Shown: positions 4,871 through 59,440, counted from the first letter of the stretch. The stretch is 64,000 nucleotides of DNA from Minisyncoccota bacterium (GCA_025449695.1 JANWIW010000036.1:320-64319), one strand, 5' to 3'. Numbers and translations: made by a program. Notes: generated from the letters alone by a model not told the origin.

Positions 4871-4910
4871 AGTTCCTAGTTCCTAGTTCTTAGTTGCTAG
4901 TTGTGAGTTG
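4871..4910. repeat. tandem heptamer array (AGTTCCT/AGTTCTT/AGTTGCT units) in the gyrA 5' leader
   Basis: agttcctagttcctagttcttagttgctagttgtgagttg immediately upstream of the gyrA ATG (mRNA sense AACUAGGAACUAGGAACUUCUCCC-AUG). Confidence 0.85.
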
Positions 4911-4965
4911 ACACAAACATGGGGACGAAAGCGAATTTATTCACCGTATCATCTCTCTACGCACC

Positions 4966-4998
4966 AAGAACTAAGAACTAGCAACTAGCAACTATCTA
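4966..4998. repeat. inverted-orientation heptamer array (AAGAACT units)
   Basis: caagaactaagaactagcaactagcaactat is the reverse complement of the array at 4871..4910. Together they bracket a 55-bp spacer. Confidence 0.8.
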
Positions 4999-5225
4999 GT
5001 GCCGAATAGTGACTGGAACACCGACGCGGTACCGGACAGTTGCGGCTTCGGCGCCGGGTTCTCGGTCGTGGAAGGCGGCGCGAGCGCTACCATTGCGGGG
5101 AAGACCGCGATCCAGAGAGCCACGACGAGTATCATGGCAGCCGCGGAAATGGCGATCAGCCAGCGCATCTTGATGTGATGCGGCGAGTTCTGAATGCGGT
5201 GGAGGTGGGTTCCGGGAGTCGCCAT
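4992..5225 (-). CDS. small membrane protein (77 aa), hypothetical
   Basis: ORF with one strong TM segment (WLIAISAAAMILVVALWIAVFPAMVALA). Heptamer arrays lie on both sides. Coding status uncertain. Confidence 0.3.
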   Translation of the reverse strand: MATPGTHLHRIQNSPHHIKMRWLIAISAAAMILVVALWIAVFPAMVALAPPSTTENPAPKPQLSGTASVFQSLFGTR

Positions 5226-5228
5226 GGA

Positions 5229-5300
5229 TAGTTCTTAGTTCTTAGTTCTTAGTTCTTAGTTTCATGCTCGCAACTAGGAACTAACAACGCGGAACTATGC
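5229..5300. repeat. tandem heptamer array (AGTTCTT x4) plus inverted partial units
   Basis: gttcttagttcttagttcttagttcttagtttcatgctcgcaactaggaactaacaacgcggaactatg. Confidence 0.85.
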
Positions 5301-5307
5301 TGATATT

Positions 5308-5880
5308 CTACGCTTTTATACCCAATATGACAAGCTTCATGGCCTCCGGCGTGAGGTCCTTTTTCTTGAAAGTGAAGCGGTCTTCCACGGTTGCGGGCTG
5401 GCCGAGCTCTTTAGCGAAAGCCTTGGCGCTCTTGTCGTTATAGAGGGAAGGGATGACGACCGCGGGCTCCAGCTGGCGGGTCAGCGCGCCGGCCGCCTCC
5501 GGTTCCAAGAAGTGGTCCTCCTCCACCGGGATGATGAGGATGTCCGGCTCCCCTATCTTCTCGAGCACCTTCGCGTCCGGAGCATTGGAGATGGAACCCA
5601 AGACGCCTATCACGATGCCCTCCCATATGATCTTGTAAGCGGTCTTCGCAAGCTTAGGGGTGGACTCGTCCATGATCTGGATGCCCTCGATCTCGATGCC
5701 TTTCACTTCATACTCTCCCGCGAAGGCGACCACATCGGCAGTTCCCGGAATATCCTTGGGGTCCACCGTGGTCTTCAGGCTCACATCCGCTTTCAGGCGG
5801 TTACCGCTCGGGTCCACCAAAAGGGAAGTTTCCCCGCTCTGCAGGCGAAAGCATCCTTCGCCGAGGTAAGTGATCACCAT
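5308..5880 (-). CDS. MBL-fold metallo-hydrolase-like protein (degenerate metal-binding motifs)
   Basis: N-terminus MVITYLGEGCFRLQSGETSLLVDP matches the beta-lactamase-fold start (xIxxLGhsxfxIe...iDP). About 190 aa. The canonical HxHxDH motif is not evident. Confidence 0.5.
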   Translation of the reverse strand: MVITYLGEGCFRLQSGETSLLVDPSGNRLKADVSLKTTVDPKDIPGTADVVAFAGEYEVKGIEIEGIQIMDESTPKLAKTAYKIIWEGIVIGVLGSISNAPDAKVLEKIGEPDILIIPVEEDHFLEPEAAGALTRQLEPAVVIPSLYNDKSAKAFAKELGQPATVEDRFTFKKKDLTPEAMKLVILGIKA

Positions 5881-5995
5881 AATGGCTGAATGATACCCGA
5901 CTTTTCATGCTGCGTAAACGGTTTTCCGCTCATCTAACTTGATTTTTTATACAAATAATGTTATAATTTTCCCAGCGAACGGGAAGGTGAAACCT

Positions 5996-6466
5996 ATGGA
6001 CCCGAAGAAGTGGGCGTCCATCGCCCGGATTGTCCGGTTCATGCTCGGCTCCGCCGGCACATTGCACATGGGGGATGAACATTACCTCACGGAAATGATC
6101 AAGCTCGGTATGATCGTCCTCAGGATCACCCGCCTCGAACCGTGGGATGAGGTGAATGAAGGGCAGCCGAAAGGAGAGGTCACGCTCGAGCCCAAGTTCA
6201 CTCCGCATTACCGGAAGCTCGTCGACCTGGGACCGAAGTACGACAAGCTTCAGCAATTGGCTCTGATCCTGGGCACTGCCCGCATCAACGAGGCCGGTCT
6301 CTCTGAGGCTCAGGCCTTGCAGGTGAAGAAGCTGCTCAAGAACGCCCACATTCCCATCGGCGACTTCCTCGGCATCGAACGCACCGGCGAGGGGTGGGTA
6401 ATCACCACGATGAAGGGAACTCTTCTCGCGGCCGCCAGCCTCAAGACCTCGCGCCGCGCCCGCTGA
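5996..6466 (+). CDS. hypothetical protein (156 aa)
   Basis: ATG at 5996 preceded by GGGAAGGTGA (SD-like). No recognisable motif. Confidence 0.4.
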   Translation: MDPKKWASIARIVRFMLGSAGTLHMGDEHYLTEMIKLGMIVLRITRLEPWDEVNEGQPKGEVTLEPKFTPHYRKLVDLGPKYDKLQQLALILGTARINEAGLSEAQALQVKKLLKNAHIPIGDFLGIERTGEGWVITTMKGTLLAAASLKTSRRAR

Positions 6467-6596
6467 CGCGCAACACCGTTCGCAACCGTCAGCAGGCAGA
6501 TCATGCAAGGACCACGACGCGTCGTCGTGGTCCGCGCTGTTTCATTTGCATATTTGAATAGTTAATGATGTAATGCAAGCAGGAAGGGAGATAGAT

Positions 6597-6842
6597 ATGA
6601 AAATGTTGTGGACCGGGTCTCTCACCATCTTGCTCATCGCGGGCGGGCTCCTTATCGCCGCAGCGCAAGGGCAAGCGCCATCGTTCGTCGACCCTGCGAG
6701 CTCTGCCGGCAATGTCCTCCGGCTCGTCTTATTCGCGAGTTCGACCATCTGGGTCGCGCTCGAATTGGGCTACGGCCCCTTTCGCGGGCTGGAGCACGAG
6801 CCGGACTGCCCTATGGCCGCTCTGGAAAGGAGTTCGATGTGA
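6597..6842 (+). CDS. small membrane protein, hypothetical
   Basis: AAGGGAG SD before the ATG at 6597. Two predicted hydrophobic helices. Its stop overlaps the start of the next ORF. Confidence 0.3.
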   Translation: MKMLWTGSLTILLIAGGLLIAAAQGQAPSFVDPASSAGNVLRLVLFASSTIWVALELGYGPFRGLEHEPDCPMAALERSSM

Positions 6843-7087
6843 AAGTAGTACTGGAAGTAGATATCGAAAAGGGCCGCGGGGACCATCGGAGTCACCAGAC
6901 GACGCTCCTCTTCGAATGTGAGATCCGGAACGTCGGCGAGCTTCTCGGCGACGGGCTGCAGCTCCTCGCGGAGAGGCGCTATGCGGACTACGTCCGCACC
7001 AAGGACGTGAGGCACCCCGGCCTCCTCGGCAGCATCCGCATCCACTTCGACCGGCCGGCAGACCTGCCGGAATATGCGACTGAATGA
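6839..7087 (+). CDS. hypothetical protein (82 aa), GTG start
   Basis: AAGGAG at 6827..6832 lies 6 nt before the GTG at 6839. The stop of the upstream ORF (TGA 6840..6842) overlaps, which suggests translational coupling. Confidence 0.3.
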   Translation: MKVVLEVDIEKGRGDHRSHQTTLLFECEIRNVGELLGDGLQLLAERRYADYVRTKDVRHPGLLGSIRIHFDRPADLPEYATE

Positions 7088-7207
7088 ATCGTGCCCGCGA
7101 CGGGATCCCGTCGCGGGCACCGTCATATATTGCCTCTCCGAGTCCCATGTGGCGGACATGAAGCTCCCCTTGCCTTTTTGGTCATTCTCTATATAATTTT
7201 CGGCACT

Positions 7208-8299
7208 ATGGCCATGGAACAGGCAAGCGCCAAGACCAATCCCCTTTTGGCCCAAATGCTGAAGATCGAAGGCGGGCAGCGCCTCCGGGACGGGGAAGTG
7301 GTGAACGCGGTCCTCTTGAGCAAGAGCCCCCGCGCCGCCTTTTTCGATATCTCGAACTTCGGCACCGGCATCATCTACGGCGCCGAGCTCCAGAGCTCCA
7401 AGGAGATGATCAAGGGTTTGAACGTGGGCGACACGATCGCCGCCAAGATCGACTCCCTGGACGGCCATATGGGCTACGTCGAGCTCTCGCTCTCCGAAGC
7501 GGGCAGGCAGAAGGCCTGGCAGAAGGCCAAGCAGCTCGAAGAGACGGGCGAGGTGGTGAAGATCAAGGTGACGGCGGTGAACCAGGGCGGCGTGATCGGC
7601 GACCTGAACGGCCTGAAGGCCTTCGTCCCCGCCTCCCAGCTCGCCGCGGAGCACGCGCCGAAGATGGATGACCGCAGCCGCGTGGCGGAAGAGCTGAAGG
7701 GCCTGATCGGCCAGGAGCTGGCCGTGAAGGTCATCACCGTAACCCCGCGCGCGAACAAGCTCATCGTGTCCGAGCGCGAGACGGTGGCCCCTTCCGCCAA
7801 CACCAAGCAGCTCCTCGAGAGCTACCAGGTAGGCCAGGTGGTGCCCGGCCTCGTATCCGGCATCGCCGACTTCGGCATTTTCGTCCGCTTCGTGGACAAC
7901 CCGGAGATCGAGGGCCTGGTCCACATCTCCGAGATCGACCACCGCATCATCGACACCCCGAAGGAGATCGTAAACCTGAACGAGAACGTGCAGGTCAAGA
8001 TCATCGACATCAAGGAAGGCCGGGTATTCCTTTCCCTCAAGGCATTGAAGGCCGATCCCTGGGTGAACGTGGGCGAGAAATACAAGGAAGGCCAGGAGGT
8101 CTCGGGACGCATCTACAAGTTCAACCCGTTCGGCGCCATCGTGGACCTGGAAAGCGGCTTGCAAGGCCTCATCCACGTGTCCGAGTTCGGCGGCTCCGAA
8201 GAGATGAAGAATATGATCAAGGTGGGCGATTCCCGCGAGTTCGTGATCGGGAGCGTCCGTCCCGAGGAGAAGCGCATCGTGCTGAAACTGAAAAAGTGA
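7208..8299 (+). CDS. rpsA: 30S ribosomal protein S1 (four S1 RNA-binding domains)
   Basis: Repeated S1-domain signatures (GxVxGxVxxIxxFGaFV..., e.g. GQVVPGLVSGIADFGIFVRF, GQEVSGRIYKFNPFGAIVDL). Start chosen at MAMEQASAKT. A strong terminator follows. Confidence 0.85.
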   Translation: MAMEQASAKTNPLLAQMLKIEGGQRLRDGEVVNAVLLSKSPRAAFFDISNFGTGIIYGAELQSSKEMIKGLNVGDTIAAKIDSLDGHMGYVELSLSEAGRQKAWQKAKQLEETGEVVKIKVTAVNQGGVIGDLNGLKAFVPASQLAAEHAPKMDDRSRVAEELKGLIGQELAVKVITVTPRANKLIVSERETVAPSANTKQLLESYQVGQVVPGLVSGIADFGIFVRFVDNPEIEGLVHISEIDHRIIDTPKEIVNLNENVQVKIIDIKEGRVFLSLKALKADPWVNVGEKYKEGQEVSGRIYKFNPFGAIVDLESGLQGLIHVSEFGGSEEMKNMIKVGDSREFVIGSVRPEEKRIVLKLKK

Positions 8300-8304
8300 T
8301 CTCC

Positions 8305-8330
8305 AAAAACCGCCCAGCTGGGCGGTTTTT
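8305..8330. terminator. bidirectional intrinsic terminator
   Basis: AAAAACCGCCCAGCTGGGCGGTTTTT: GC stem flanked by an A-tract and a T-tract. Confidence 0.7.
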
Positions 8331-8368
8331 GGTACAGTGCTGTACACTGCGAAGCTTTAGCGAAGCAG

Positions 8369-8642
8369 TGCCGCGGGGGTGAATCGAACACCCGACGCCT
8401 TCCTCTTCCGAGGTTTGGACTATCTCATCTTCCCGAAGGAAGTTGGGCGCTTGTGCAGGATTATTGTTGGGACTCACCCGCTAGTCTCTACACCTTCCCC
8501 GCCACCTCTGCCCAGCGGGGCTTGGCTCGGGATTGTCCAAATATTGGAGTTTCCCCGAATTCACCCAATTATTCAATCCGCATTACTGCGGAAGGCCCCA
8601 AAGAGTACTTAGGGAAGCGCTCTGCCACTGAGCTACCGCGGC
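8369..8642 (-). tRNA. tRNA-Phe(GAA) interrupted in the anticodon loop by a group I intron (exons 8611..8642 and 8369..8408)
   Basis: 5' exon GCCGCGGTAGCTCAGTGGCAGAGCGCTTCCCT and 3' exon GAAGAGGAAGGCGTCGGGTGTTCGATTCACCCCCGCGGCA reconstitute a 72-nt cloverleaf: 7-bp acceptor stem, GTTCGATT T-arm, A73, loop CUGAAGA with anticodon GAA. The anticodon call depends on the inferred splice sites. Confidence 0.65.
8409..8610 (-). ncRNA. group I self-splicing intron (202 nt) in the tRNA anticodon loop
   Basis: Conserved group I elements read in the insert: P-like AAUUCGGGGAAAC, Q-like AAUCCCGAGCCAAGCC, R-like GUAGAGACUAGC and S-like AAGAUGAGAUAGUCC (P7 GACUA/UAGUC). The 5' exon ends in U and pairs with intron GGGG (P1 U.G). 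The intron ends in G. The 3' exon start GAAGA can pair with the P1 loop UCUUU (P10). Confidence 0.65.
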
Positions 8643-9343
8643 ATTTGAACCTGGCTTTTCAAACCGTCGATCCATCCCATGATGCGATGGTATAAAGACG
8701 TATCCGCAATTCTAATCTGAATCACCCCATAGGGCAAGCGATGAAATGGACGCTTTCTCCGGCTGGAGATGCTCACTCCTCGGTAAGTTTTCTCAAAATT
8801 CTGCAAGGGGATGCCAATCGCATTACTCCAAAATCCCTTGGCTTCTATCTCGTTGATGTGATCAAAGATACGCAGGCTCGCCTTTATCTTGTGCCTGGGA
8901 ACGCCGCAGGCATTTTCCAAAAAAATAACAAATGCCTTTGCTAGCATGGGATCGGAGTTGGTAAGACTTACCGGATGGAATGTGACCTCTTTCCCCTTCC
9001 TGATTATCGGACGCTTATATCCTTCCGCCCAGTATAACGCGGCGCCCAGTATGACCAGCTCCCAGGGAAGTAGTTGGCCAATTTCATGCGATGCTTTATT
9101 ACGGGTCGTACGAGCACGCTCAACTGCCAGTTTCGTCTGATTCCTATTGCGCTTTAATAATCCTTCTAAGGATCTACCTCTTGTCCTCTGCAAAATCCTT
9201 GTGCGCGCTGCCTCAGAAATGAGCACTCCGCTTAACCACGCAGATAGTGTCCCTTTGGAAATGGTTGGCATCGCCTGCTGTATTTCCGAATAACTTTTCC
9301 CTTGCAGTCGCAACCTAATTGCTACGTTTTTATCTGTCCTCAT
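8633..9343 (-). CDS. LAGLIDADG-type homing endonuclease-like protein with N-terminal HTH
   Basis: ILGAALYWAEGYK block resembles the single LAGLIDADG motif. N-terminal AIRLRLQGKSYSEIQQAM looks like a sigma-region-4-type HTH. The stop codon lies at tRNA nt 8-10 of the intron-containing tRNA. Confidence 0.5.
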   Translation of the reverse strand: MRTDKNVAIRLRLQGKSYSEIQQAMPTISKGTLSAWLSGVLISEAARTRILQRTRGRSLEGLLKRNRNQTKLAVERARTTRNKASHEIGQLLPWELVILGAALYWAEGYKRPIIRKGKEVTFHPVSLTNSDPMLAKAFVIFLENACGVPRHKIKASLRIFDHINEIEAKGFWSNAIGIPLQNFEKTYRGVSISSRRKRPFHRLPYGVIQIRIADTSLYHRIMGWIDGLKSQVQMPR

Positions 9344-9428
9344 GTTTAAAGCCTAGCGCACCAAGTTCAAGAAAGGATCAAGGTCGCTTTGCCAGATGGG
9401 AAGATTTTGGCGTAAAATCAACGCGATC

Positions 9429-9500
9429 GCCCCCGTAGTTCAATGGATAGAACTCCAGACTTCTAAGCTGGCTATGTAGGTTCGATTCCTACCGGGGGTA
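9429..9500 (+). tRNA. tRNA-Arg(TCT)
   Basis: Cloverleaf read directly: acceptor GCCCCCG/CGGGGGT, D-arm GTTC-AATGGATA-GAAC, anticodon loop CTTCTAA, T-arm GTAGG-TTCGATT-CCTAC, discriminator A. Confidence 0.85.
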
Positions 9501-9501
9501 C

Positions 9502-9572
9502 CGGGCCGTCGTATACCGGTAGTACGCCTGCTTTGGGAGCAGGTAGACTGGGTTCAATTCCCAGCGGCCCGA
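9502..9572 (+). tRNA. tRNA-Pro(TGG)
   Basis: Acceptor CGGGCCG/CGGCCCG, anticodon stem CCTGC/GCAGG, loop TTTGGGA (G37), T-arm CTGGG-TTCAATT-CCCAG. Starts 2 nt after tRNA-Arg. Confidence 0.85.
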
Positions 9573-9947
9573 CACCTGAAGACAACATCTCCAATGTCCG
9601 TGTTCTGCATGAGCCCTTCTGCCACAAGGGTTTTTTGTGATCGCGGCAAAAGTGGGCAGGAGTGACACCTTCTTGGCAGTTTAGCTTGACGGAACGGGCA
9701 TGAAGGGTAAGCTAATGGAGCTTCTGCGATGCTTGGTACCGGCATCGCCTATCGCTCGCGGCGGACTCCATCTGGCAGAGCTTAGTGCTCGGCTGCAGCG
9801 CGGGTCGGCAGTGATTCGTGGAGAAGCGGGGGTTGGTCCACGCCTTAGAGAGGGCGTGGCGCCCCTCTCTCGGCTTCACCGCCAAAGGTGCCCCATGCTG
9901 CCCCAGGCTTCCATGTCCTGGGGCTTCTTCTTTTTATAGAGTATCGG

Positions 9948-9977
9948 TTTACTGTTTACTGTTTACTGTTTACTATA
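9948..9977 (+). repeat. tandem heptamer array (TACTGTT x4) in the 5' leader of the dCMP deaminase gene
   Basis: actgtttactgtttactgtttactatatcc, 5 nt before the ATG at 9983. Confidence 0.85.
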
Positions 9978-9982
9978 TCCCC

Positions 9983-14407: not shown

Positions 14408-15511
14408 TCACGCTATGGCGAACACGCTCGGATGCTCCACGAGGAGCTCGTGGCCCATCTCCGTCACGAGCACCATGTCTTCGATGCGGATCCCGCCGTG
14501 CTCCGGATAGTAGAGGCCGGGTTCCACGGTGATGATGTGTCCCGGCTGGAGCGTGTCCGTGGACCGCTCTCCCACGCTTGGCGCCTCGTGAACCTCCAGG
14601 CCCACGCCATGGCCCGTGGAATGAGTGAATCCCTTGTCGCCAGTGTCGAACCCGCCCTCTCCAAGCTCGTGCCGCACGATGCCGTCGATTTCCCTGGCTG
14701 CGGCGCCGGGACGGACCGCCTTCATAGCACGTGCCTGCGCCTCCTTCACCGCGTCGAACATCGCCTGGAGCCGCGGGGATGGCGCGCCCTTCACGTATGT
14801 GCGGGTCAGGTCGGCGAAGTAGCCGGTCCGGCGGTCCAGCGGGAAAAGGTCGCACACGATGGACTCACCCGCCCGGATCCGCCCTTCGCCTTTATGATGG
14901 GGGATGGCGGCGTGCGGTCCCGAAGAGATAATCATCCCTTCAACGTCAGCGACACCGGCGCGCACGAAGGCTATCTCTACCTCTTCCTTCAGCCACTCCG
15001 AGGTGAGCGGCGCGCCCTGCCATGTGACCAGGCCGTCCTCGATCCCGGCTTCCCCCAATATCTTCTCGATACGCTCGAAGCCCTTCACGGTGCATGCGGC
15101 GGTATGCCGCATCGCGTCGATCTCTTCGTCCGTCTTCACCGCGCGCTCGGGAAAGAAAGGATGGCGGACGTCCACCACGAACCCGTGCAGGCGCAAATGG
15201 TCCGCCATGTCGAGCGGGAAACTGCGCGGGACGGTCAGGCTCTTCTCTCCCGGCGCGAACCGGGCAAGGAGGAAAACCATGAACTCCGCGCGGGTCCGCA
15301 CTCCTTCCGCGCGGGCGATATCGAGCAAGGTGGTAATGAGCACGGTCTCGAAGCCTGTTTTCCCAGCGTTCACCACGCCCATTTCCCGATGGTCCAGGAA
15401 AAGGTATTCCTTATCTCCCGCCCGGATCCATGGCACCGGGTCGGAAACCTCCGCTTTGATCTTCCAGCGCAGGTCTGCGTTCTTGGTCGAGTCGTAGATG
15501 AGATCAGCCAT
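14408..15511 (-). CDS. M24 family metallopeptidase (Xaa-Pro aminopeptidase/dipeptidase-like)
   Basis: Pita-bread fold metal ligands: HSTGHGVGLEVHE, ...GHIITVEPGLYYPEHGGIRIEDMVLVTE. Confidence 0.9.
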   Translation of the reverse strand: MADLIYDSTKNADLRWKIKAEVSDPVPWIRAGDKEYLFLDHREMGVVNAGKTGFETVLITTLLDIARAEGVRTRAEFMVFLLARFAPGEKSLTVPRSFPLDMADHLRLHGFVVDVRHPFFPERAVKTDEEIDAMRHTAACTVKGFERIEKILGEAGIEDGLVTWQGAPLTSEWLKEEVEIAFVRAGVADVEGMIISSGPHAAIPHHKGEGRIRAGESIVCDLFPLDRRTGYFADLTRTYVKGAPSPRLQAMFDAVKEAQARAMKAVRPGAAAREIDGIVRHELGEGGFDTGDKGFTHSTGHGVGLEVHEAPSVGERSTDTLQPGHIITVEPGLYYPEHGGIRIEDMVLVTEMGHELLVEHPSVFAIA

Positions 15512-17706: not shown

Positions 17707-17778
17707 AAGAATAGTTCTTAGTTCTTAAGTTTCTAGTTGAGTAGCACTACAAACTGAAAACTCGCAACTGACAACTAT
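17707..17778. repeat. tandem heptamer array in the glyA 5' leader
   Basis: agaatagttcttagttcttaagtttctagttgagtagcactacaaactgaaaactcgcaactgacaactatg (mRNA sense ...AACUUAAGAACUAAGAACUAUUCUU-AUG). Confidence 0.85.
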
Positions 17779-17921
17779 GTTTTACACCATGGCCTCCATT
17801 TTCTCGCATTTTGCCGTGTTCGGCAAACTATTGTATTTACTGCTGAGCTTGTGGGAACTCGGCGGTAAGTTATCCTGGAGAGGTTCGTCTTCACGTAGTC
17901 ATCATTTTTCATCAAACATTC

Positions 17922-19310
17922 ATGATGAGGAAACATTCCAAGATACTGTCTATAGCGCTCGCGGCCGTCACGCTCGCCGGCATTGCGCCGGCGGTCGTCT
18001 ATGCCGCGCCGCCTTCACCTGTCGCCACTATCGCCGGCCCGGCGTGCGTGCTTTTCCCCCGTAACCTGACGATGGGCATGCAGGGCGAGGACGTACGCGG
18101 GCTCCAACAGTTCCTAAACTCCCATGGGTTCGCCGTCGCAGCCTCCGGTCCCGGCTCCGCCGGAGCGGAAACCACGCTTTTCGGGGCGAGGACGCGTCAG
18201 GCGCTCGCCGGGTTCCAGCGCGTGAACGGGATCTCGCCCCCCGCCGGATACTTCGGCGCGATCAGCCGGGCCAAAGTGTCTGTGCTCTGCATGGGCGCAT
18301 CGGTCTCCGGCTCCGGGCAGGGCCTCACGACCACGATCACCCCGCTTCCTCCGGCGGCCAAAGCCGGCATAGGCGGCGCGAACGGCGTTGCCTTCACCCC
18401 GACCGTAGTAACTCCGCCGCCTTCCACGGTGGTGACCCCTCCGGCGACAGCAGCGGCGGTCCCGGCAGGCTCCATCGCGCCCCAGAGCGTTGTCGGCGTG
18501 TTGTGCACCTACCGCTGGGGCAATCGCACCCAGCTCATGAAGGGCTCCGGCGTCATCGTGAGCTCGCAAGGCTACGTCCTGACCGCGCGCCATATCGTAG
18601 ACCCGCGCTGGACCTACGATGTCTATCAAAGCACGCTGAACGCTGAACAGCGGGATATGTACATGAACGCCGTCCTTGATCACTGCGAGATCGGCCTGCC
18701 GGAACAGGGTACAGCCTTACCGGGCGGCGGCGACATCCGCCGGCTGAACCCCGGCACGTTGATCACCGGCCATTTCCAGTACCGGGCGGAGCCGTACTTC
18801 CTGCCGGGCCGCAACGGCCTTTCCGCAAGCGAGTACAACACTGCGGATTTCGCCGTACTCAAGGTGAGCGGTCCCGTGCCCAACTGCTCCTCCTGGAACC
18901 GGGAGTGTAACCTGGCGGGCGCCTTCCCTTACACGCCGGTCATGACGACCCCCCTGCCTGCGGCGGCGAGCGATGAGATCTTGAGCTACGGGTACCCCTC
19001 CACGCCGGGCGTGAACGATGCGGCCTCGAACTTCATGGCTTTCTATTTGAAAGGCGCCGTCGGCACGGTAGGAATGTATCTCTCCGGCGACCAGCGCTTC
19101 GCGGGCATGCCCATGAATTTCTCTTTCGATGCCCAAGATATCCATAATGGGCGCTCCGGCTCCCCCATCTTCCATCGCGGCAAGGTGGTGGGCATCCTGT
19201 ACGGGTCTACCTCGAGCCAGCAGTCCTTCAACCTGAGCATGCCGGCCATCATGGCCATACTGAAGGACGCGGGCCTGGACTCCGTGGCGTCATTTTCTCT
19301 GTCATCCTGA
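17922..19310 (+). CDS. secreted trypsin-like (S1 family) serine protease with N-terminal peptidoglycan-binding domain
   Basis: Signal peptide. PG_binding_1-like LTMGMQGEDVRGLQQFLNSHGF...RTRQALAGFQ. Catalytic triad contexts GYVLTARHIV (His), DFAVLKV (Asp), NGRSGSPIF (Ser). Confidence 0.7.
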   Translation: MMRKHSKILSIALAAVTLAGIAPAVVYAAPPSPVATIAGPACVLFPRNLTMGMQGEDVRGLQQFLNSHGFAVAASGPGSAGAETTLFGARTRQALAGFQRVNGISPPAGYFGAISRAKVSVLCMGASVSGSGQGLTTTITPLPPAAKAGIGGANGVAFTPTVVTPPPSTVVTPPATAAAVPAGSIAPQSVVGVLCTYRWGNRTQLMKGSGVIVSSQGYVLTARHIVDPRWTYDVYQSTLNAEQRDMYMNAVLDHCEIGLPEQGTALPGGGDIRRLNPGTLITGHFQYRAEPYFLPGRNGLSASEYNTADFAVLKVSGPVPNCSSWNRECNLAGAFPYTPVMTTPLPAAASDEILSYGYPSTPGVNDAASNFMAFYLKGAVGTVGMYLSGDQRFAGMPMNFSFDAQDIHNGRSGSPIFHRGKVVGILYGSTSSQQSFNLSMPAIMAILKDAGLDSVASFSLSS

Positions 19311-25772: not shown

Positions 25773-25863
25773 CGGCGGAACTGCCTGGCCTGCTTCGTAT
25801 ATGGAGTATCGCCCCTCGAAGAAAGGAGGTGCGGTCAATTCCAGTTTTTAGTTTTCCAGCAAC

Positions 25864-36664: not shown

Positions 36665-36765
36665 TATTTTATTTTGGCTTAATTTGAATCTACGGTAGCG
36701 GCGACCTTGTAGCAAAAAACCCGCCACCAGTTGGCCTTTCGGCCTGCAGGAGTTTCCCCCTGCAA

Positions 36766-36806
36766 CGCAAGACGCGTCCCTGATGACGGGATCTTTGCGT
36801 CTTGCG
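36766..36806. repeat. 41-bp hairpin in the divergent intergenic region (CGCAAGACGC ... GCGTCTTGCG)
   Basis: 10-bp perfect stem with a structured loop. It sits where GC content shifts. Candidate operator or recombination site. Confidence 0.5.
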
Positions 36807-36906
36807 ATTTTGAGCCATGCCGTGCAGTCTTCCGCATCGGTTTAGGCTATCCAGCCGTATGTAGTTGTATTCAAATCCTATAGTGTTCCCGCGCTATAAT
36901 CAACGC

Positions 36907-43151: not shown

Positions 43152-43659
43152 GTTTCTCCTCGTACGGACGTTTAGTGTCATCGGGGATGTCGGCGTGGGT
43201 GGCGCGCCAGAGTGCGTTGGGTAGGTAAGTGAAACGTCAATCAAGTAACCCACTACTCAGTGCTCGGCATTAACGCGGCCGTCGCGTCAGCATCCTTTTC
43301 AGACAATCATATCTAGCGTCCTCCTATTTGTCAGACACACAACAATTCAGTTGTGAACGTACTCTGTGGCACCCATGCCCCCCAGATAGTTGAAAAGTAC
43401 CATGTATGCAAATTCCGTCAACCTTATGTATCCCCAGGTAATCCGGCAACCCGTTTGCCGGATACATATTCTGAAAATTCCTTGTATTTCCTACAAAGAA
43501 AGCATCTCCGTAACTCGATCGAAGGATGGATATTCGACAAAGCCCTCCTTCGCCAAGGCTTCGGAAGGACGCAGCGCGGGGCACAGCCCCACTTCGCTCT
43601 TTCGAGCTACGCGAGGCACAGCAAAATCTAAGCCTCGATTACTCGGCAAGATTTTTTAG

Positions 43660-43732
43660 TGCGCGTGCCTGGACTCGAACCAGGAACCGCCAAGGTATAA
43701 GCTTGGTGCTCTAACCATTGAGCTACACGCGC
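43660..43732 (-). tRNA. tRNA-Ile(TAT)
   Basis: GCGCGTG acceptor, GCTC-AATGGTTA-GAGC D-arm, anticodon stem CCAAG/CTTGG with loop CTTATAC, CCTGG-TTCGAGT-CCAGG T-arm, discriminator A. Confidence 0.75.
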
Positions 43733-43782
43733 AATTGCTTTCACTGCCGCGGCGGCGCGGAGCATCCGGCAAAGCGCATTTA

Positions 43783-43815
43783 CTATAAACTAAAAACTTT
43801 AAACTAAAAACTATC
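43783..43815. repeat. tandem heptamer array (AACTAAA units) abutting a stop codon
   Basis: actataaactaaaaactttaaactaaaaactat. Confidence 0.8.
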
Positions 43816-44407
43816 TCACTATTCCGTCGAAGCGATCCATGGCCTGGCCGGCCTGGCTGTTGAAGCTGTTGATGGCGCGCACTTCCGCATTGATGTTGGC
43901 CACAAGGATACCTATGTCGCTCGGCTTGCCCCGGCCGGTCTCGAAATGGGCCTCAAGGGCTATGATCAGGCGGCCTACCTCGTCGGTGTAACCGATCAGA
44001 CGGTTCTCGAGCGCGAGGCGGAGCGATATGGAATCCAGGGCCGCCTGCTGGGCGGCATCATTCGTGATGTCGGGAATGGCAAGAGTCATGACCTGCAGCT
44101 CCTTTGAGAGATCGATGGCGTGGGTACGGACACTGGCATTCTTGTCGCCCACCTCCTTGAGGATCGCGAGTGCTTCCTGGTACTGCCCTTGGCGGTCCAG
44201 CTCGTTCACCTTGGCGATGTCGGCCACAATGGCGTTCGATGAGTTCACGATATCCTGGGCGATCACCGCGCTTTTTGCACGCGCCTCATAAAACTGCTGG
44301 GGAACGCCCACATGGGGCGCGAAGACCACGCGCAAGACAAAGTAGGTGATGAGGCCCACGCCGAAGATCACGAAGAAAAGGATGAGCCGACGGTTTCTTG
44401 TTTTCAT
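43811..44407 (-). CDS. membrane-anchored hypothetical protein (198 aa)
   Basis: N-terminal TM helix (LILFFVIFGVGLITYFVL), then a soluble coiled region. Confidence 0.45.
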   Translation of the reverse strand: MKTRNRRLILFFVIFGVGLITYFVLRVVFAPHVGVPQQFYEARAKSAVIAQDIVNSSNAIVADIAKVNELDRQGQYQEALAILKEVGDKNASVRTHAIDLSKELQVMTLAIPDITNDAAQQAALDSISLRLALENRLIGYTDEVGRLIIALEAHFETGRGKPSDIGILVANINAEVRAINSFNSQAGQAMDRFDGIVR

Positions 44408-47025: not shown

Positions 47026-47058
47026 TAGTTTTTAGTTTCAAGTTTTTAGTTGCGAGTG
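47026..47058. repeat. tandem heptamer array in the clpP 5' leader
   Basis: tagtttttagtttcaagtttttagttgcgagtg (mRNA sense AACUAAAAACUUGAAACUAAAAACUACCCC-AUG). Confidence 0.85.
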
Positions 47059-49240: not shown

Positions 49241-49280
49241 CAGTTGTTAGTTTTTAGTTTGTAGTTGTTAGTGTAACAAA
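49241..49280. repeat. tandem heptamer array in the hppA 5' leader
   Basis: cagttgttagtttttagtttgtagttgttagtgtaacaaa. Confidence 0.85.
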
Positions 49281-50644: not shown

Positions 50645-50694
50645 GCTTCTATTGTTATTGAGTTGTTATTTAATTTTGATGACCTTTATGCAGG

Positions 50695-50770
50695 GTTCTA
50701 ACTGTTGTAACCGTTGTAATTGTTCTAATGAAACAGGTAGAACAATGACAACATTTCCGATAACTAAAAC
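50695..50770. repeat. degenerate short-period tandem repeats (GTTGTAA/GTTCTAA units) in the nusA 5' leader
   Basis: gttctaactgttgtaaccgttgtaattgttctaatgaaacaggtagaacaatgacaac. Confidence 0.7.
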
Positions 50771-53236: not shown

Positions 53237-53414
53237 GTCTTTGCTGTGCTTGTTCGTCGCCAAACAATTTGTTTGTCGCCAAACAATCGGAAAAACATTT
53301 TTGTTTGTCAGGATTTAGGCTTATTTTGATGGTTCGGCAGCCTTTCCTGAAAGTTCGGCAATTGCCGGATTGCTTCATTGCGTCCCCTTTATACATTCAG
53401 GTAGAATTATCCCC

Positions 53415-53762: not shown

Positions 53763-53810
53763 TAATTGGTACTTAGGAACTACGAAGTCCTAGTTGTTGA
53801 TTACTGATAC
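53761..53810. repeat. degenerate heptamer-type repeat patch
   Basis: agtaattggtacttaggaactacgaagtcctagttgttgattactgatac. Confidence 0.6.
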
Positions 53811-53850
53811 CTTTTATCTTTTTTTGAGCTAGATTGGTCACAATTGCGAC

Positions 53851-55383: not shown

Positions 55384-55389
55384 CCGTGA

Positions 55390-55740
55390 CTATGTTTCGT
55401 GCGCTTGATCGAAAAGCCTGTTGTCTTTGCGCTCCCTTTCATGCCTCAGGTGCAACTGCTCGAAATCTTCCTCGGAACCGTCGAAGAGAGGCTTTTGGTC
55501 TGCGCCCAGTATTCTGACCCTCGCTTCGCCCTGATCCACATAATGTTCCGGAGTAAACGCCTTCAAATCGATGCCTTCGAAGAGCGCGTTGCGAGCCCGC
55601 GCATCGGCAATGTATTCGCTCATCTTATAATCGACGCTTAGTACGCGTCTTAACTGTTCTTCTGCATCCTTGATGCGAGTCTCTGCAGACTCATCTGCAC
55701 TTCGCCAAGGCCCTACGCTATGTTCGAAGTGTTCTCCCAT
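55390..55740 (-). CDS. hypothetical protein (116 aa)
   Basis: ORF only. Acidic, no motif. Confidence 0.35.
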   Translation of the reverse strand: MGEHFEHSVGPWRSADESAETRIKDAEEQLRRVLSVDYKMSEYIADARARNALFEGIDLKAFTPEHYVDQGEARVRILGADQKPLFDGSEEDFEQLHLRHERERKDNRLFDQAHET

Positions 55741-55768
55741 GTCCAGTTGGCAAAAAGAAGACGGCCTC

Positions 55769-56461
55769 TTATTTCTTCGCGAAAGGATTCGTCGCGCCTT
55801 TCACCTCGAAATGGAGATGGCAGCCGGTGGCGCCGGTCGTGCGCCCCGAGTTGCCTATGGCGCCGATCTGCTCGCCCTGATCCACGCTGTCGCCGACCAG
55901 GACCGTGACCTGTGAAAGATGGGAGTACTTGGTCGCCGTCCCGTTCGGGTGTTCGATGTCCACGAAATTGCCGTAACCGCTATTCCAGTTTCCGGATCCG
56001 TCCGCTCCGGTGACCACGCCCTGGGCGGCGGCAATCACCCGCGTGCCGCAAACATTCGCGACGTCCACTGCGTTATGGGGGTGCAGTACGCCCCAGTTGA
56101 TGCCGGACGTGGGTTGGATAAAGTAGCGCTGCAGGCGAGGAAGGTTTTTGGGAGCTTCCTCGGCCGCCGAGCCGCCATCGTCCGGAACGGAGGGAGGGGG
56201 AGGCACGGTCAACCCTTCGGCGGGGGATGAAAGCGCTATAAAAGAGGCTTCCGCCTCGCCCATGCTCGCTTCCGCGTCATGATGGTGGTGTTCCTCCCCG
56301 GGAGCTATGGAGGCCACCCCGGCCAGGCTGGGCTCGGAGGCTGCGGTTGCAAGATCGGGCTCAAGGCCGGGACCGCCCAATATGCCGACGCCGCCCTTCT
56401 CCAGAGCGGCGGCTTGGCTGTGGGAGGCCAAGAAGCGCCCTCCCAAGACCATCATGACCAA
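55769..56461 (-). CDS. M23 family (LytM-type) metallopeptidase
   Basis: HxxxD...GxxVxIxHxNGxxTxYxHL...GxxVxxGxxIGxxGxSGxxTGxHLHFE pattern read in the C-terminal half. N-terminal hydrophobic anchor. Confidence 0.75.
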   Translation of the reverse strand: MVMMVLGGRFLASHSQAAALEKGGVGILGGPGLEPDLATAASEPSLAGVASIAPGEEHHHHDAEASMGEAEASFIALSSPAEGLTVPPPPSVPDDGGSAAEEAPKNLPRLQRYFIQPTSGINWGVLHPHNAVDVANVCGTRVIAAAQGVVTGADGSGNWNSGYGNFVDIEHPNGTATKYSHLSQVTVLVGDSVDQGEQIGAIGNSGRTTGATGCHLHFEVKGATNPFAKK

Positions 56462-56568
56462 AAGAAAGGCGATTCCTAGGGAGAGCGCCTTTTGGGAGGA
56501 CCTAAATTGGCGTACAATCGTACTAATAGAGAAAGTATAGCATATTCTTCACTCGAACTTCATTCCGT

Positions 56569-58554
56569 ATGGTCTCTAAAACCTTTACGAAATCAGGGAA
56601 AACCCAAGAAAACCAAGGATCGCCGGCTCTGAACCCCGATCAGGAGCGGGCGGTGAGGGCAGCGCCGGATAAGCCTCTCCTCATCGTGGCCGGAGCGGGG
56701 ACCGGCAAGACCGCCACCCTGACCAGCCGGGTGGCGTTCCTTATAAAAGAGGGGGTGCCCCCGGCTTCCATCTGCGCCATAACCTTCACCAACAAGGCCG
56801 CCCGGGAGATGGAAGAACGGATAGTTTCAAGTTTTAAGTTTTTAGCTTCTAGTGAAGACGAACCTCCAAAAACTAAAAACTACCCGCTGAAAACTAGGCC
56901 CTTTATCGGGACCTTTCACGCCTTCGGCGCGCGCATACTCAGGCGGCATGCGGCCCTCCTCGGCCGGACGCCGGGCTTCGTAATATTCGACGACCATGAT
57001 TCTTTCTCCCTGGTCAAGAAAATATTGAAGGACATGGACCGCCGCAAGGAAAGCCCGGCCATAATTCTCGGAAAGATCTCCGCGCTGAAGAACACTCCTT
57101 CCGGGGACCAGAAAGCCAAGCTAGATGCAGAGGCGCCGCTCGTGCAGTCTGTATTCGCGCGCTACGAAGCGGGGCTGGAGGAACAGAACGCTTTCGACTT
57201 TGACGACCTGCTGGCTAAAGTAGTGCTTCTCTTCCACAAGGCACCCGCCGTCCTCGACCGCTACCGGGCACAGTTCACCCACATCCTGATCGACGAGTAT
57301 CAGGACCTGAACGACCTCCAGTACGAGTTCACCCGCCTCCTTGTCGGAGACCGCGCCTCTATCTCGGTGGTCGGCGACGCGGAACAAACCATCTACGGAT
57401 GGCGGGGCTCCAATATCGAGATCTTCCTCCGTTTCCCGGACGATTGGGCGGAGGCGCACATGGTGACGCTGGACCAGAATTACCGTTCCACCCGGCACAT
57501 CCTGCGCGCGGCTTCCGGCGTGATCCAAAACAACGTGTACGACACGAAGGTCCAGCGCGCGACCGGCCTGTGGACTGAGAATGCGGAGGGAAAGAAAGTG
57601 GTCGCGCACGAGGCGCTGGGTGAAGACGCGGAAGCGGAGTGGATCGCGGAGCAGATAGGTTACAGGTTACAGGGTACAGGTTACAGAAAGAACGCGGACA
57701 CCGAGCCTGGAAGCCCAGGGCTGGAAGCTATAAGCTCGACTGCCATTCTCTACCGGACAAACGCGCAATCGCGCGCGCTGGAGCAGGCGCTCCTGCGACG
57801 GCGCATCCCGTACCGCGTGTACGGAGGATTGAAGTTCTACGAGCGCCGCGAGATCAAGGACATCGTCGCTGCCCTTCGTTATTCGCTGAACCCGAAGGAC
57901 CAACTCGCGCAGGAACGGCTGGAGAAGAACTTCTCGAAACGGATGTTCAGAACCCTGGCGGATGCGTTCGCGAACCATCCCGACCCGTCACCCCTGGCCC
58001 GCATCGACCTTTTCCTGAAGACAGCGGGCTACTTCGAGTACATGGAACGGAACATGACCAACCCCAGGGAACGCCGGGAAAACATAGAAGAATTGGTTCA
58101 CTTCGCCGCGGGCTACAAGGATATCGCGGAATTCCTGGGTGAGATCGCCCTCCTGCAATCCACCGACAACCTGAATGCGAACGGCCGCAGGATCAGAGCC
58201 GAGGCGCCGGGACAGACTCCGCAGGAGGAACATGCGGTTAGCCTGATGACGATCCATCTCGCCAAGGGACTGGAGTTTGACCGCGTGTTCGTGGCCGGGG
58301 TCGTAGAAGGGGTCCTGCCCCATGCGCGCTCCATGGGCAGCGTGGACGAGGTGCAGGAGGAGCGGCGGCTGATGTACGTCGCCATGACCCGTGCGCGCAA
58401 AGAGCTTTACCTGAGCTTCTACGAATTGCCTTCCCGTTTCCTGGGAGAAGTTCCCGAAGATACGCTGGAGTTCCAGAGCGAAACGGGCACCGATCGTAAG
58501 TCGCTCGATTACGACGGAGAAGAATATGAGGAGCGGTATATCAGCCTTGATTAG
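56569..58554 (+). CDS. UvrD/PcrA/Rep-family ATP-dependent DNA helicase carrying in-frame repeat-derived insertions
   Basis: Motifs I (AGAGTGKT), Ia (TFTNKAAREM), II (ILIDEYQD), III (GDAEQTIYGWRG), IV (YRST), V/VI (HLAKGLEFDRVF, MYVAMTRARK). Extra segments SSFKFLASSEDEPPKTKNYPLK and GYRLQGTGYRKN are encoded by heptamer repeat DNA. Confidence 0.9.
   Translation: MVSKTFTKSGKTQENQGSPALNPDQERAVRAAPDKPLLIVAGAGTGKTATLTSRVAFLIKEGVPPASICAITFTNKAAREMEERIVSSFKFLASSEDEPPKTKNYPLKTRPFIGTFHAFGARILRRHAALLGRTPGFVIFDDHDSFSLVKKILKDMDRRKESPAIILGKISALKNTPSGDQKAKLDAEAPLVQSVFARYEAGLEEQNAFDFDDLLAKVVLLFHKAPAVLDRYRAQFTHILIDEYQDLNDLQYEFTRLLVGDRASISVVGDAEQTIYGWRGSNIEIFLRFPDDWAEAHMVTLDQNYRSTRHILRAASGVIQNNVYDTKVQRATGLWTENAEGKKVVAHEALGEDAEAEWIAEQIGYRLQGTGYRKNADTEPGSPGLEAISSTAILYRTNAQSRALEQALLRRRIPYRVYGGLKFYERREIKDIVAALRYSLNPKDQLAQERLEKNFSKRMFRTLADAFANHPDPSPLARIDLFLKTAGYFEYMERNMTNPRERRENIEELVHFAAGYKDIAEFLGEIALLQSTDNLNANGRRIRAEAPGQTPQEEHAVSLMTIHLAKGLEFDRVFVAGVVEGVLPHARSMGSVDEVQEERRLMYVAMTRARKELYLSFYELPSRFLGEVPEDTLEFQSETGTDRKSLDYDGEEYEERYISLD
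56825..56896. repeat. intragenic inverted heptamer-repeat element (in-frame) inside the helicase gene
   Basis: tttcaagttttaagtttttagcttctagtg...aaaaactaaaaactaccc. The right arm is identical to the clpP leader repeat AACTAAAAACTACCC. Confidence 0.8.
57658..57687. repeat. intragenic tandem heptamer array (GGTTACA x4), in-frame inside the helicase gene
   Basis: ggttacaggttacagggtacaggttacaga encoding GYRLQGTGYR. Confidence 0.8.
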
Positions 58555-58625
58555 GTTCTAACCGTTCTAGCCGTTCCAGCGTTGTAGCGTTACGATTATC
58601 ACGACTAGAACGCTTAGCACATCTT
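58555..58625. repeat. 8/9-bp period tandem repeats between the helicase and ksgA
   Basis: gttctaaccgttctagccgttccagcgttgtagcgttacg...gactagaacgcttagcac. Confidence 0.75.
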
Positions 58626-58639
58626 GAACATTCTATTCT

Positions 58640-59440
58640 ATGCGTCAAAACCTTGGACAACACTTTCTGAATAATAAGGGGGTCCTCCGCCGGATCGCCG
58701 AGACGGTCGCCGCCGCCGATGCGGACACGATCATAGAGATCGGTCCCGGCCACGGGGAACTTACAGAGTTTCTAGTTGCTAGTTTTCAGTTTTCAGACAA
58801 GAACGAATCCCATCTCCGGCTTTTCCTTATCGAACGGGACCCCACGCTTGCGGAGGCGCTGCGAACGAAATTCGCCGATGACAAGCAGATCAGTGTCATT
58901 GAGGATGACGTCCTGGATGCCTTGGGCCCTATGACCCACGACCCACGACTTACGACTTACGCGATCTGCGGCAACCTGCCCTACTATCTCACCGGCCATC
59001 TTTTGCGCCTCATAGGAGAACTGCCGGAAATGCCCGCGGCGTGCGTGTTCACCATTCAAAAGGAAGTGGCGGAACGGCTGGCCGCCAAACCTCCACGCAT
59101 GAACAGGCTCGCGGCCGCAGTCCAGTTCTGGGCGGAGCCGAAGGTGATCGGGCTTATCTCCCGCAAGGATTTCTCACCGCCGCCGGAGGTGGACTCCGCC
59201 ACGGTGATGCTAAAGACGCGGCCCGGCGACCGCGGTGACGGTGACAGCTACTACCGCATGGTAAGGATCCTCTTTCAACAACCCAGAAAGACCATCGGCA
59301 ACAACCTCGCCGCTGCGGGCCTTTCAAGAGAAAACATCGCCGCAGGCTTCGCCAAGCTGGAGATAGATCCGGGAAACCGGCCTCAGGACTTAGGCATCGA
59401 GCAAATATCGAAAATCGCAGAGATCTTCCATGGTCTGTGA
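58640..59440 (+). CDS. rsmA: 16S rRNA (adenine1518/1519-N6)-dimethyltransferase KsgA/RsmA carrying in-frame repeat segments
   Basis: GQHFLNNKGVLRRI, SAM motif IIEIGPGHGELT, catalytic CGNLPYY. An insert FLVASFQFSD lies relative to the usual spacing between LT and LIE-D. Confidence 0.9.
   Translation: MRQNLGQHFLNNKGVLRRIAETVAAADADTIIEIGPGHGELTEFLVASFQFSDKNESHLRLFLIERDPTLAEALRTKFADDKQISVIEDDVLDALGPMTHDPRLTTYAICGNLPYYLTGHLLRLIGELPEMPAACVFTIQKEVAERLAAKPPRMNRLAAAVQFWAEPKVIGLISRKDFSPPPEVDSATVMLKTRPGDRGDGDSYYRMVRILFQQPRKTIGNNLAAAGLSRENIAAGFAKLEIDPGNRPQDLGIEQISKIAEIFHGL
58768..58798. repeat. intragenic heptamer array (AGTTGCT/AGTTTTC units), in-frame inside ksgA
   Basis: gtttctagttgctagttttcagttttcagac encoding FLVASFQFSD. 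Confidence 0.8.
58923..58952. repeat. intragenic heptamer array (ACGACCC/ACGACTT), in-frame inside ksgA
   Basis: gacccacgacccacgacttacgacttacgc encoding THDPRLTTY. Confidence 0.8.

Follow-up and report, generated by a model that had tools for sequence, protein, structure and literature searches.

The 64-kb stretch of DNA analysed here (JANWIW010000036.1:320-64319, called the window below) comes from a Parcubacteria-like bacterium of the candidate phyla radiation (CPR) and carries a dispersed family of tandem arrays built on the heptanucleotide AACT(A)NN. Five of these arrays, in front of gyrA, glyA, clpP, hppA and a small open reading frame (ORF), read AACUAnn in the sense of the gene behind them and end 3–6 nt before supported ATG start codons. 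We hold with about even confidence that the arrays are microsatellites generated by slippage and that those in leaders serve as initiation regions independent of a Shine-Dalgarno (SD) sequence, a function suggested by where and how the repeats lie. Among the explanations weighed below, an element acting in translation or on the mRNA appears the best supported. The affiliation of the organism follows from the best named matches of GyrA and HppA, all of them Patescibacteria/Parcubacteria (Ca. Liptonbacteria, Paceibacterota and Jorgensenbacteria). The mean GC content of the window is about 56%, lower than the 60% originally stated for the genome.

Heptanucleotide arrays in front of start codons

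Arrays of period 7 are numerous between 4.8 and 59 kb according to Tandem Repeats Finder, with 2–4.7 copies each; parsed into units, they consist of 2–6 head-to-tail direct repeats of 7 nt. Pairs of AACT in the window are spaced by 7 nt almost exclusively. The pattern AACTN3AACTN3AACT, allowing at most one mismatch, has 27 matches against 0.14 expected from dinucleotide-preserving shuffles, and none of 100 shuffles reached 27. Likewise, a scan for a trinucleotide kept over at least four units found 12 regions of period 7 against 0.8 expected and none of periods 5 or 8 anywhere in the window, while period 9 was enriched as well (6 regions against 0.8). The dispersed family of tandem heptanucleotides postulated in the original prediction therefore exists. 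It is not an artefact of assembly, since an independent metagenome contig (L204) is identical to the window through the clpP array; no length polymorphism of the array was found in this one contig.

Within the unit the tetranucleotide AACT is nearly invariant and the last two to three bases vary: positions 1–4 carry 1.5–2.0 bits and positions 6–7 carry 0.25–0.32 bits, values that refer to the 48 units, out of 50, in which three or more of the four AACT positions match and that are biased towards the core by this selection. At position 5, 73% of units have A. AACTAAG, AACTAGG, AACTAGC, AACTAAA, AACTACA and similar units are found; AACTGAA and AACTGAC together occur three times, and the exact unit TAACTGA is absent from the arrays of the window. 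Overall the arrays are composed of 50% A, 23% C, 18% T and 9% G. With few exceptions the unit nearest the gene, the outermost one, is AACTATC, AACTACC or AACTGTC, and the internal ones end in AAG, AGC, AAA or similar triplets; a C-rich tract (CCCC, TCC, TCTCCC) usually stands between array and ATG.

The gyrA array (4871..4909, minus strand) reads AACTCAC AACTAGC AACTAAG AACTAGG AACTAGG AACT and is followed by TCTCCC and the ATG (4864), at a distance of 6 nt; the start of the protein, MSNIEKREI, is conserved in relatives. A 77-aa membrane ORF (4992..5225) has the array (AACTAAG)4 AACTA (5229..5261, minus strand), then TCC and its ATG, hence a distance of 3 nt. Before glyA, the units AACTAGA AACTTAAG AACTAAG AACTA (17712..17738, minus strand), one of them 8 nt long, are separated from the ATG (17706) by the 5 nt TTCTT. 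The clpP array (47026..47058, minus strand; CACTCGC AACTAAA AACTTGA AACTAAA AACTA) ends 4 nt (CCCC) before the ATG (47021); it is predicted to be single-stranded and its lone G lies in the first, degenerate unit. Finally, the array of hppA, which encodes the membrane pyrophosphatase, reads CACTAAC AACTACA AACTAAA AACTAAC AACT (49242..49273, minus strand) and is separated by the 5 nt GTCCG from the ATG (49236). The prediction that arrays end a few nucleotides before the ATG of these five genes is thus borne out by measured distances of 3–6 nt.

The identities of gyrA, glyA (SHMT), clpP, the membrane pyrophosphatase, nusA, dCMP deaminase, uvrD and ksgA/rsmA were confirmed with Pfam. For gyrA, glyA, clpP, hppA and dCMP deaminase, position 1–3 of the Pfam profile falls within the first 6–28 residues, which supports the assigned starts, and the N-termini of orthologues match for gyrA, clpP and hppA.

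SD sequences had been described as absent from all these leaders. When defined as at least 4 nt within AGGAGGU lying 4–13 nt before the start, on the assumption of a canonical 16S tail, SD-like motifs are indeed missing from four of the five AACT leaders (glyA, clpP, hppA and the 77-aa ORF) and from the leader of dCMP deaminase. The statement fails for gyrA, whose array holds AGGA twice, made by the AACTAGG units; the nearer copy ends 9 nt before the start codon. Predicted sigma-70-like promoters were found upstream of several arrays: TTGTCA-17-TAGAAT (5333-5305, minus strand) just upstream of the array at 5272-5296, TTGCCA-17-TACCAT (47112-47084) upstream of the clpP array and conserved in the relative L205, and TTCCCA-16-TACAAT (17857-17830, minus strand) upstream of the glyA arrays. 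Because these promoters lie upstream of them, we place the arrays in 5' untranslated regions.

Initiation without an SD sequence appears to be routine in this organism, as few SD motifs are found and many genes look leaderless: an SD-like motif at proper spacing precedes only about 4 of 25 well-supported ATG genes, and A at -11 (15 of 25 genes) together with T at -7 points to many leaderless genes of the type TATAAT-N6-ATG. Examples of TATAAT-like hexamers that end 6–10 nt before an ATG are found at 15511 (minus), 24789 (plus), 12282 (minus), 53851 (plus) and near 7209 (plus), the last in front of the S1 gene. The lineage thus appears to make wide use of leaderless or near-leaderless mRNAs, and the same mix is seen in the relatives L201, L203 and L205.

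Three of the leader arrays (gyrA, 77-aa ORF and glyA) have an inverted partner shortly upstream in the same transcript. The partner of the gyrA array (4969..4996, plus strand) reads AGUU in the transcript of the gyrA operon and shares bases with the stop of the 77-aa ORF (4992-4994); in a long predicted hairpin (-51 kcal/mol, z -5.4) it is the 5' arm and the gyrA array the 3' arm. A second one (5272..5296, plus strand), between the stop of a lactamase-fold gene (5308) and the array at 5229-5261, is predicted to pair with the latter (-23 kcal/mol, z -3.9). The third, upstream of glyA (17745..17777, plus strand; CACTACA AACTGAA AACTCGC AACTGAC AACTA), gives a weak hairpin (z -1.0). With a fourth pair inside uvrD, described below, inverted pairs occur at four loci, about 4 of 9, always in the order AGTT-array, loop, AACT-array, with loops of 9, 10, 23 and 59 nt that by eye have no common sequence. 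More than half of the arrays are solitary, and the solitary ones at clpP and hppA are predicted to be unpaired. A general description of the arrays as unstructured consequently suits clpP and hppA and does not extend to the inverted pairs at gyrA, the 77-aa ORF and uvrD (z -5.4, -3.9 and -2.8). Two plus-strand ORFs (17777..18064 and 5297..5443) begin with an ATG where a partner array ends; they were judged spurious, as they overlap real genes, so the partner arrays are not leaders of divergent genes. Stop codons in all three frames were considered as a selected property of the arrays and set aside, since one frame stays open in the hppA array and the property is therefore not a general one.

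Relatives, other phyla and copies away from start codons

The closest genomes with DNA on record are L201 and L202 (82% GyrA identity) and L203 (79%). In these three, the lactamase-fold gene, a small ORF and gyrA abut or overlap, with gaps of 2–12 nt and no arrays; the small ORFs of 76 and 69 aa that L201 and L203 have in this position, after the lactamase-fold gene and before gyrA, are homologues of the 77-aa ORF. In the window gyrA lies 127 nt downstream of the small ORF, behind arrays. As the genes of the relatives abut without arrays, those of gyrA and of the 77-aa ORF are recent gains, and the genes of this region were probably translationally coupled before. Given the present position of gyrA, its array must support initiation of an essential gene. 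A further genome (L207, GCA_009712145.1; 78% GyrA identity) has a spacer of 50 nt between the small ORF and gyrA (3950-4000, plus strand) with four AGTTTT motifs that are antisense, spaced by 12–16 nt and not phased in heptads; they may represent a degenerate or incipient partner array.

Matters differ at clpP and hppA. In L205, whose HppA is 79% identical and which is syntenic with the window over about 20 kb, the clpP leader retains the promoter, a 5' stem-loop and ACT at -8, -15 and -22, while most spacer bases differ, and ACT-N5-ATG stands before hppA in all three available genomes. The same genome has (TAGNNNN)5 at the spot orthologous to the window array at 43781-43813 and a short heptad run at the site of the ksgA insertion discussed below; since these loci carry other heptads, arrays can persist at a locus while their units turn over. 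As a negative control, 845 kb from distant relatives (metagenome UvrD matches of at most 51% identity) were found to contain no AACT arrays.

The repeat is found far beyond this lineage. The pattern (AACTANN)3AACTA, taken in one genome per species, is listed for at least 120 stretches: at least 46 in Bacteroidota, 28 in Cyanobacteria, 11 in Acidobacteriota, 8 in Pseudomonadota and relatives, 6 in Bacillota, 5 each in Planctomycetota and Patescibacteria, and 11 in others, each number being a lower bound and the tally not normalised by the number of genomes per phylum. Among the 134 arrays in these listed matches, 16 lie in sense and one in antisense 2–9 nt before the ATG of an ORF of at least 90 aa; the antisense control is fair because stop codons occur in AACTA read either way (TAA/TAG, or TAG). 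Genes downstream of arrays in the matches listed include those for EF-G, ribosomal protein S13, ATP synthase gamma, GatA and the asparagine synthase AsnB. The Pfam profiles of EF-G, S13 and ATP synthase gamma align, from position 1–3 on, with the opening few residues of these proteins; in GatA this position falls on residue 23.

Within the window, AACT-type copies are also found away from starts. An AACT-sense array without a gene behind it (43781..43813, plus strand) follows the stop of a 198-aa gene (43811..44407, minus strand) and lies upstream of a minus-strand tRNA-Ile(UAU) gene. This tRNA gene (43659-43732, minus strand) is directly downstream of the array, and L205 has a tRNA gene at the corresponding place; a UAU anticodon is an uncommon bacterial way to read AUA. 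Inside uvrD, an inverted pair (56823..56883; left copy 56823-56847, minus strand; right copy 56871-56883, plus strand; z of the predicted fold -2.8) lengthens the encoded loop by about 15 aa compared with most homologues; the left copy is antisense to the gene and the right one sense, with two units only. An array inside ksgA/rsmA (58767..58791, minus strand), antisense to the gene, coincides with a 9-aa insertion (SFQFSDKNE) relative to L205. All AACT copies inside ORFs fall in variable protein loops. A minor two-unit copy, AACTAAA AACT, is located at 25843..25853 (minus strand). Since such non-leader copies exist, the family must arise by a mutational process that acts genome-wide and is not confined to leaders.

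The original prediction pooled the AACT-type arrays, which do form a family, with intragenic arrays, the 9-mers near nusA and a promoter-like repeat before dCMP deaminase, which do not belong with them as leader elements. The GGTTACA and ACGACTT arrays are located inside ORFs, with no start codon behind them: (AGGTTAC)4 (57657..57686, plus strand), not AACT-type, coincides with a 14-aa insertion (GYRLQGTGYRKNAD) in UvrD, and a run of ACGACCC/ACGACTT heptads in ksgA (58928..58961, plus strand) involves no change in length relative to L205. UvrD has further lineage-specific insertions relative to L205, of 13 aa (NANGRRIRAEAPG; 58174-58212, plus strand), where no obvious heptad repeats are seen, and of 6 aa (TPSGDQ; 57094-57111, plus strand).

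The array before dCMP deaminase, (TTTACTG)3 TTTACTAT (9948..9976, plus strand), has a different unit. It ends 8 nt before the ATG (9983), and it reads TTTACT-17 nt-TACTAT-6 nt-ATG; the orthologue in L203 (2010-2040, minus strand) has TACAAT-6 nt-ATG. A 7-nt array automatically aligns -35-like and -10-like hexamers 23 nt apart (3x7+2 = 23), and the TTTACTG array is likely best read, from its layout, as the duplicated promoter of a leaderless mRNA. The gene seems to retain a leaderless-type promoter despite the expansion of the repeat. The nusA repeats (50695-50728), placed 3–8 nt before the AUG in the original prediction, turned out to have a period of 9 nt (GTTCTAACT-type 9-mers) and to lie about 50 nt upstream of the ATG, in a leader of about 170 nt behind a TTGACA-17-TATGAT promoter. 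The nusA leaders of the window (50645-50680, minus strand) and of L205 (8685-8720, plus strand) have no SD and finish with direct repeats, about 11 nt long and rich in A and C (AATAACAAC..); a repeat-built, G-poor leader is thus kept between the relatives, and that of the window also has ACAATTAC. Other runs comprise GTTCTAACC-type 9-mers after the uvrD stop (58555-58576, plus strand) and a duplicated 19-mer (53250-53287).

Two RNA elements were noticed in the window besides the arrays. A group I catalytic intron at 8399-8620 (minus strand) matches the full-length Rfam model RF00028 with 68.6 bits, and a weak tRNA-like match (8584-8642, E = 0.57) overlaps its 5' edge; ARAGORN calls no tRNA there. 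A possible reading is a tRNA gene split by the intron, an arrangement known from CPR bacteria. A LOOT RNA motif (36733-36848, minus strand; RF03000, 72.7 bits, gathering score 46.4) sits in a stretch of low GC content (39–50%, about 26–39 kb) that looks compositionally foreign relative to the rest of the window.

Proposed initiation at the arrays and competing explanations

Arrays would arise, and change in length, by replication slippage in steps of 7 nt, and would persist where they are tolerated, that is in intergenic DNA or in protein loops with an open frame. In a leader, an array could provide a G-poor, A/C/U-rich single-stranded platform with its last ACU 4–6 nt from the AUG (AACU...N4-6...AUG). 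The 30S subunit would load at this platform, possibly by way of an OB-fold protein that binds single strands, be it ribosomal protein S1 or one with a cold-shock domain. Such a domain spans about 7 nt, and cold-shock domains bind heptamers with one protein each (PMC4679880). Where an AGUU array precedes the AACU array, as at gyrA and the 77-aa ORF, a hairpin would form, and translation of the upstream ORF through the 5' arm, which overlaps its stop codon, might open the gyrA site and thereby preserve the translational coupling that the relatives achieve by abutting genes.

A role in translation or on the mRNA, as proposed in the original prediction and previously in print (PMC4679880), is partly supported, namely by orientation, placement and low structure. 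It is favoured because the arrays lie between predicted promoters and the ATG, because their orientation is tied to the downstream gene (16:1 in other phyla), because they are poor in G and locally unstructured, and because in relatives the ACT nearest the ATG stands at an unchanged distance from it. Predicted folding from -30 to +15 also speaks for it, with a mean of -1.8 kcal/mol at the six array-preceded starts (five AACT leaders and dCMP deaminase) against -6.2 kcal/mol in 21 other genes (p = 0.004). Going further, the AACU-core heptads might form a distinct class of ribosome-binding sites that crosses phyla and is read heptad by heptad by an OB-fold binder, which would recruit or position the 30S subunit 4–6 nt upstream of the AUG with no pairing to rRNA. 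On this view an array newly made by slippage could give a gene a working initiation site in a single mutational step, as appears to have happened to gyrA once it no longer abutted the upstream ORF. We put this generalisation forward tentatively and consider it doubtful.

Several observations weigh against initiation at the arrays. All five leader arrays precede minus-strand genes, and a strand-linked mutational bias in the window is possible. The array at 43781-43813 and those in uvrD and ksgA cannot act in initiation, which is why function cannot be a property of the whole family. The gyrA and 77-aa-ORF arrays are missing from relatives with 79–82% GyrA identity, and neutral insertions would look alike. 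At these same two genes the AACU array is predicted to be base-paired. In the folding comparison, some of the 21 other genes are probably leaderless, and what lies upstream of these is not part of a transcript. The AACU core has no complementarity to the conserved 3' tail of 16S rRNA, and pairing between the two was rejected on the strength of the conserved bacterial sequence. Finally, no cold-shock-domain gene was found in the window when all six frames were searched for RNP motifs.

The strongest competitor is a neutral or selfish bloom of microsatellites, in which a heptamer prone to slippage expands and spreads wherever this is not lethal; the arrays, barred from ORFs in most frames by their stop codons, would pile up before starts as the last tolerated position and have no role in expression. 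The absence of arrays from the gyrA operon of relatives and from the 845 kb of distant genomes fits such a bloom, as do the in-frame insertions in uvrD and ksgA, the array upstream of a tRNA gene and the coexistence of other heptads (AGGTTAC, ACGACTT and TTTACTG in the window; AGC, TAG and AAG types in L205). Among long simple sequence repeats, moreover, heptanucleotides form the commonest class, and slippage of the polymerase has been put forward as the reason (Mrazek 2007, summarised in PMC4679880). Tolerance does not, however, explain a sense bias of 16:1 when either orientation brings in stops, nor the tight spacing of 3–6 nt, and a bloom without function would not be expected to keep AACT while neighbouring bases drift, both within and between orthologous arrays, to hold the register at clpP and hppA, or to sit in front of essential and presumably highly expressed genes. 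We therefore regard it as improbable, although it deserves to be taken seriously.

The strict period of 7 nt, the invariant core of 4–5 nt and the free spacers are also a signature of repeated protein contacts, as expected of a binding array for a dedicated, sequence-specific RNA-binding regulator, an oligomer that would read one AACUA, or partner UAGUU, per subunit and so set up a post-transcriptional regulon in the manner of HutP or TRAP. The antisense UAGUUNN would fit the UAG-N4 spacing of HutP sites. The binding of heptamers by cold-shock domains, one protein each (PMC4679880), would fit as well. No candidate protein was identified, though, the window being without a cold-shock-domain gene, and the downstream genes (gyrase, SHMT, ClpP, pyrophosphatase) share no theme; the presence of the same repeat before unrelated housekeeping genes in at least five phyla rather speaks for a universal partner, the ribosome or S1 for instance. 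Such a regulator is distinctly unlikely in our view.

Still less probable is a promoter or operator element acting at the DNA level, with mRNAs that have little or no leader. Many genes of the window do look leaderless, an array of at least four units aligns its own -35 and -10 hexamers, the TTTACTG array fits a promoter, and in Nostoc heptamer repeats were found to modulate promoter activity (preprint, 10.1101/2022.06.06.494920). Yet AACTANN contains no TAnnnT hexamer in either orientation, the distance from TA to the next T being 5 nt, and better sigma-70-like promoters lie upstream of the arrays, the one at clpP being conserved in L205. The promoter reading was accordingly rejected for AACTA arrays and kept for the TTTACTG array only, the one array in which a TAnnnT hexamer ends 6–7 nt before the ATG with a -35-like hexamer 16–18 nt further upstream.

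Least probable of all, to a degree that we hardly credit it, is a small palindromic mobile element (MITE/REP/RPE-like) inserting as an inverted array pair and sometimes in frame: four inverted pairs in fixed order, one of them inside uvrD, a recurrent outer unit AACTAT(C) or AACTACC, the one end they share, and gains that are recent relative to the closest genomes agree with it, but loop lengths, arm lengths and units differ, more than half of the arrays are solitary, no target-site duplication is seen at the gyrA junction (the only one inspected, by eye, against relatives), and orthologous arrays have diverged in place. The mobile mini-repeat that targets leaders, the alternative offered in the original prediction, is right in part: several arrays are recent gains that relatives lack, and others are in-frame insertions in uvrD and ksgA. 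Against it, neither a constant element length nor a transposase is evident, no target duplication was seen at that junction, and orthologous arrays differ in unit sequence, which fits growth by slippage better than transposition.

If the arrays do drive initiation, they represent a sequence-defined, SD-independent signal common to Bacteroidota, Cyanobacteria, Planctomycetota, Acidobacteriota, Beggiatoaceae and CPR bacteria. The window would add to this a reduced CPR genome in which the essential gyrA depends on an array leader, and its relatives add both recent gain and positional conservation. In practical terms, the arrays mark true start codons, the real ATG usually lying within 3–9 nt, and could aid gene calling where an SD is lacking; in addition, they give rise to lineage-specific in-frame insertions in proteins. 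Neutral arrays would still point to unusually active 7-nt slippage in a CPR lineage.

Comparison with known repeats and leader signals

HutP binds (UAG-N4)n and TRAP binds (G/U)AG repeats at fixed spacing in leader RNAs. The arrays of the window resemble these sites in their short invariant core, constant spacing and location in a 5' leader, and the period of UAG-N4 is that of the antisense UAGUUNN. They differ in that the leaders read AACUA instead of UAG and that the genes concerned are unrelated housekeeping genes rather than one operon. A second resemblance is to SD-independent initiation regions, such as A/U- or A/C-rich leaders, S1-dependent enhancers and those of the Bacteroidetes type, and the phyla that bear the arrays are known for low SD use. 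The leaders of the window are likewise poor in G, weakly structured and free of complementarity to the anti-SD. Those regions are, however, compositional and non-periodic, whereas the arrays have a fixed tetranucleotide in strict 7-nt phase.

The short tandemly repeated repetitive (STRR) sequences of cyanobacteria have units of other sequences than the AACT units. Like the arrays of the window, they are dispersed tandem arrays of heptanucleotides with an origin attributed to slippage (Mrazek et al. 2007, as summarised in PMC4679880), but they are often much longer and have no reported tie to start codons, while the arrays of the window have 2–6 units and the leader copies lie 3–6 nt from the ATG. 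The 7-bp repeats in the hmw promoters of H. influenzae (PMC8262952) also stand between promoter and start and can change in length by slippage; unlike these contingency loci, the genes in question here are essential housekeeping genes of a non-pathogen. In Nostoc, heptamer repeats near start codons were found to affect reporter expression and promoter activity (preprint, 10.1101/2022.06.06.494920). Our search of the literature on translation signals in CPR bacteria returned nothing relevant, and none of the papers found settles the mechanism of heptamers.

The closest precedent is that of MacGregor (2015; Front Microbiol 6:1397, PMC4679880), who described direct repeats of TAACTGA in marine Beggiatoaceae, Cyanobacteria and Bacteroidetes. 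Most sets lie between genes and are directed toward a start codon a few nucleotides away, usually in the absence of an SD, and they are predicted to be unstructured; copies inside ORFs are rare and in reverse orientation. The author proposed that they act in translation and named S1, CsrA and cold-shock proteins, one bound to each heptamer, as possible partners (PMC4679880). The arrays of the window share with them the AACT-containing units of 7 nt in 2–6 copies, the mostly intergenic position, the direction toward start codons, the usual lack of an SD, changes of length in 7-nt steps and a scattered phylogeny, and their few ORF-internal copies are mostly reverse as well (ksgA and the left copy in uvrD), in variable loops. 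On the other hand, the unit of the window is degenerate, AACT(A)NN, and only the AACT core is common to both, which makes it a relative and not the same repeat. The arrays of the window belong to a Parcubacteria-like CPR bacterium rich in GC (about 56%), and PMC4679880 does not mention this group; inverted pairs are found at about four of nine loci, compared with one inverted repeat among 170 BOGUAY sets; and the relatives of the window, beyond what that report offered, allow the arrays to be dated, some as recent gains and others as positionally conserved. The arrays described here are a member of this published class of repeats, in a new phylum and with a degenerate unit.

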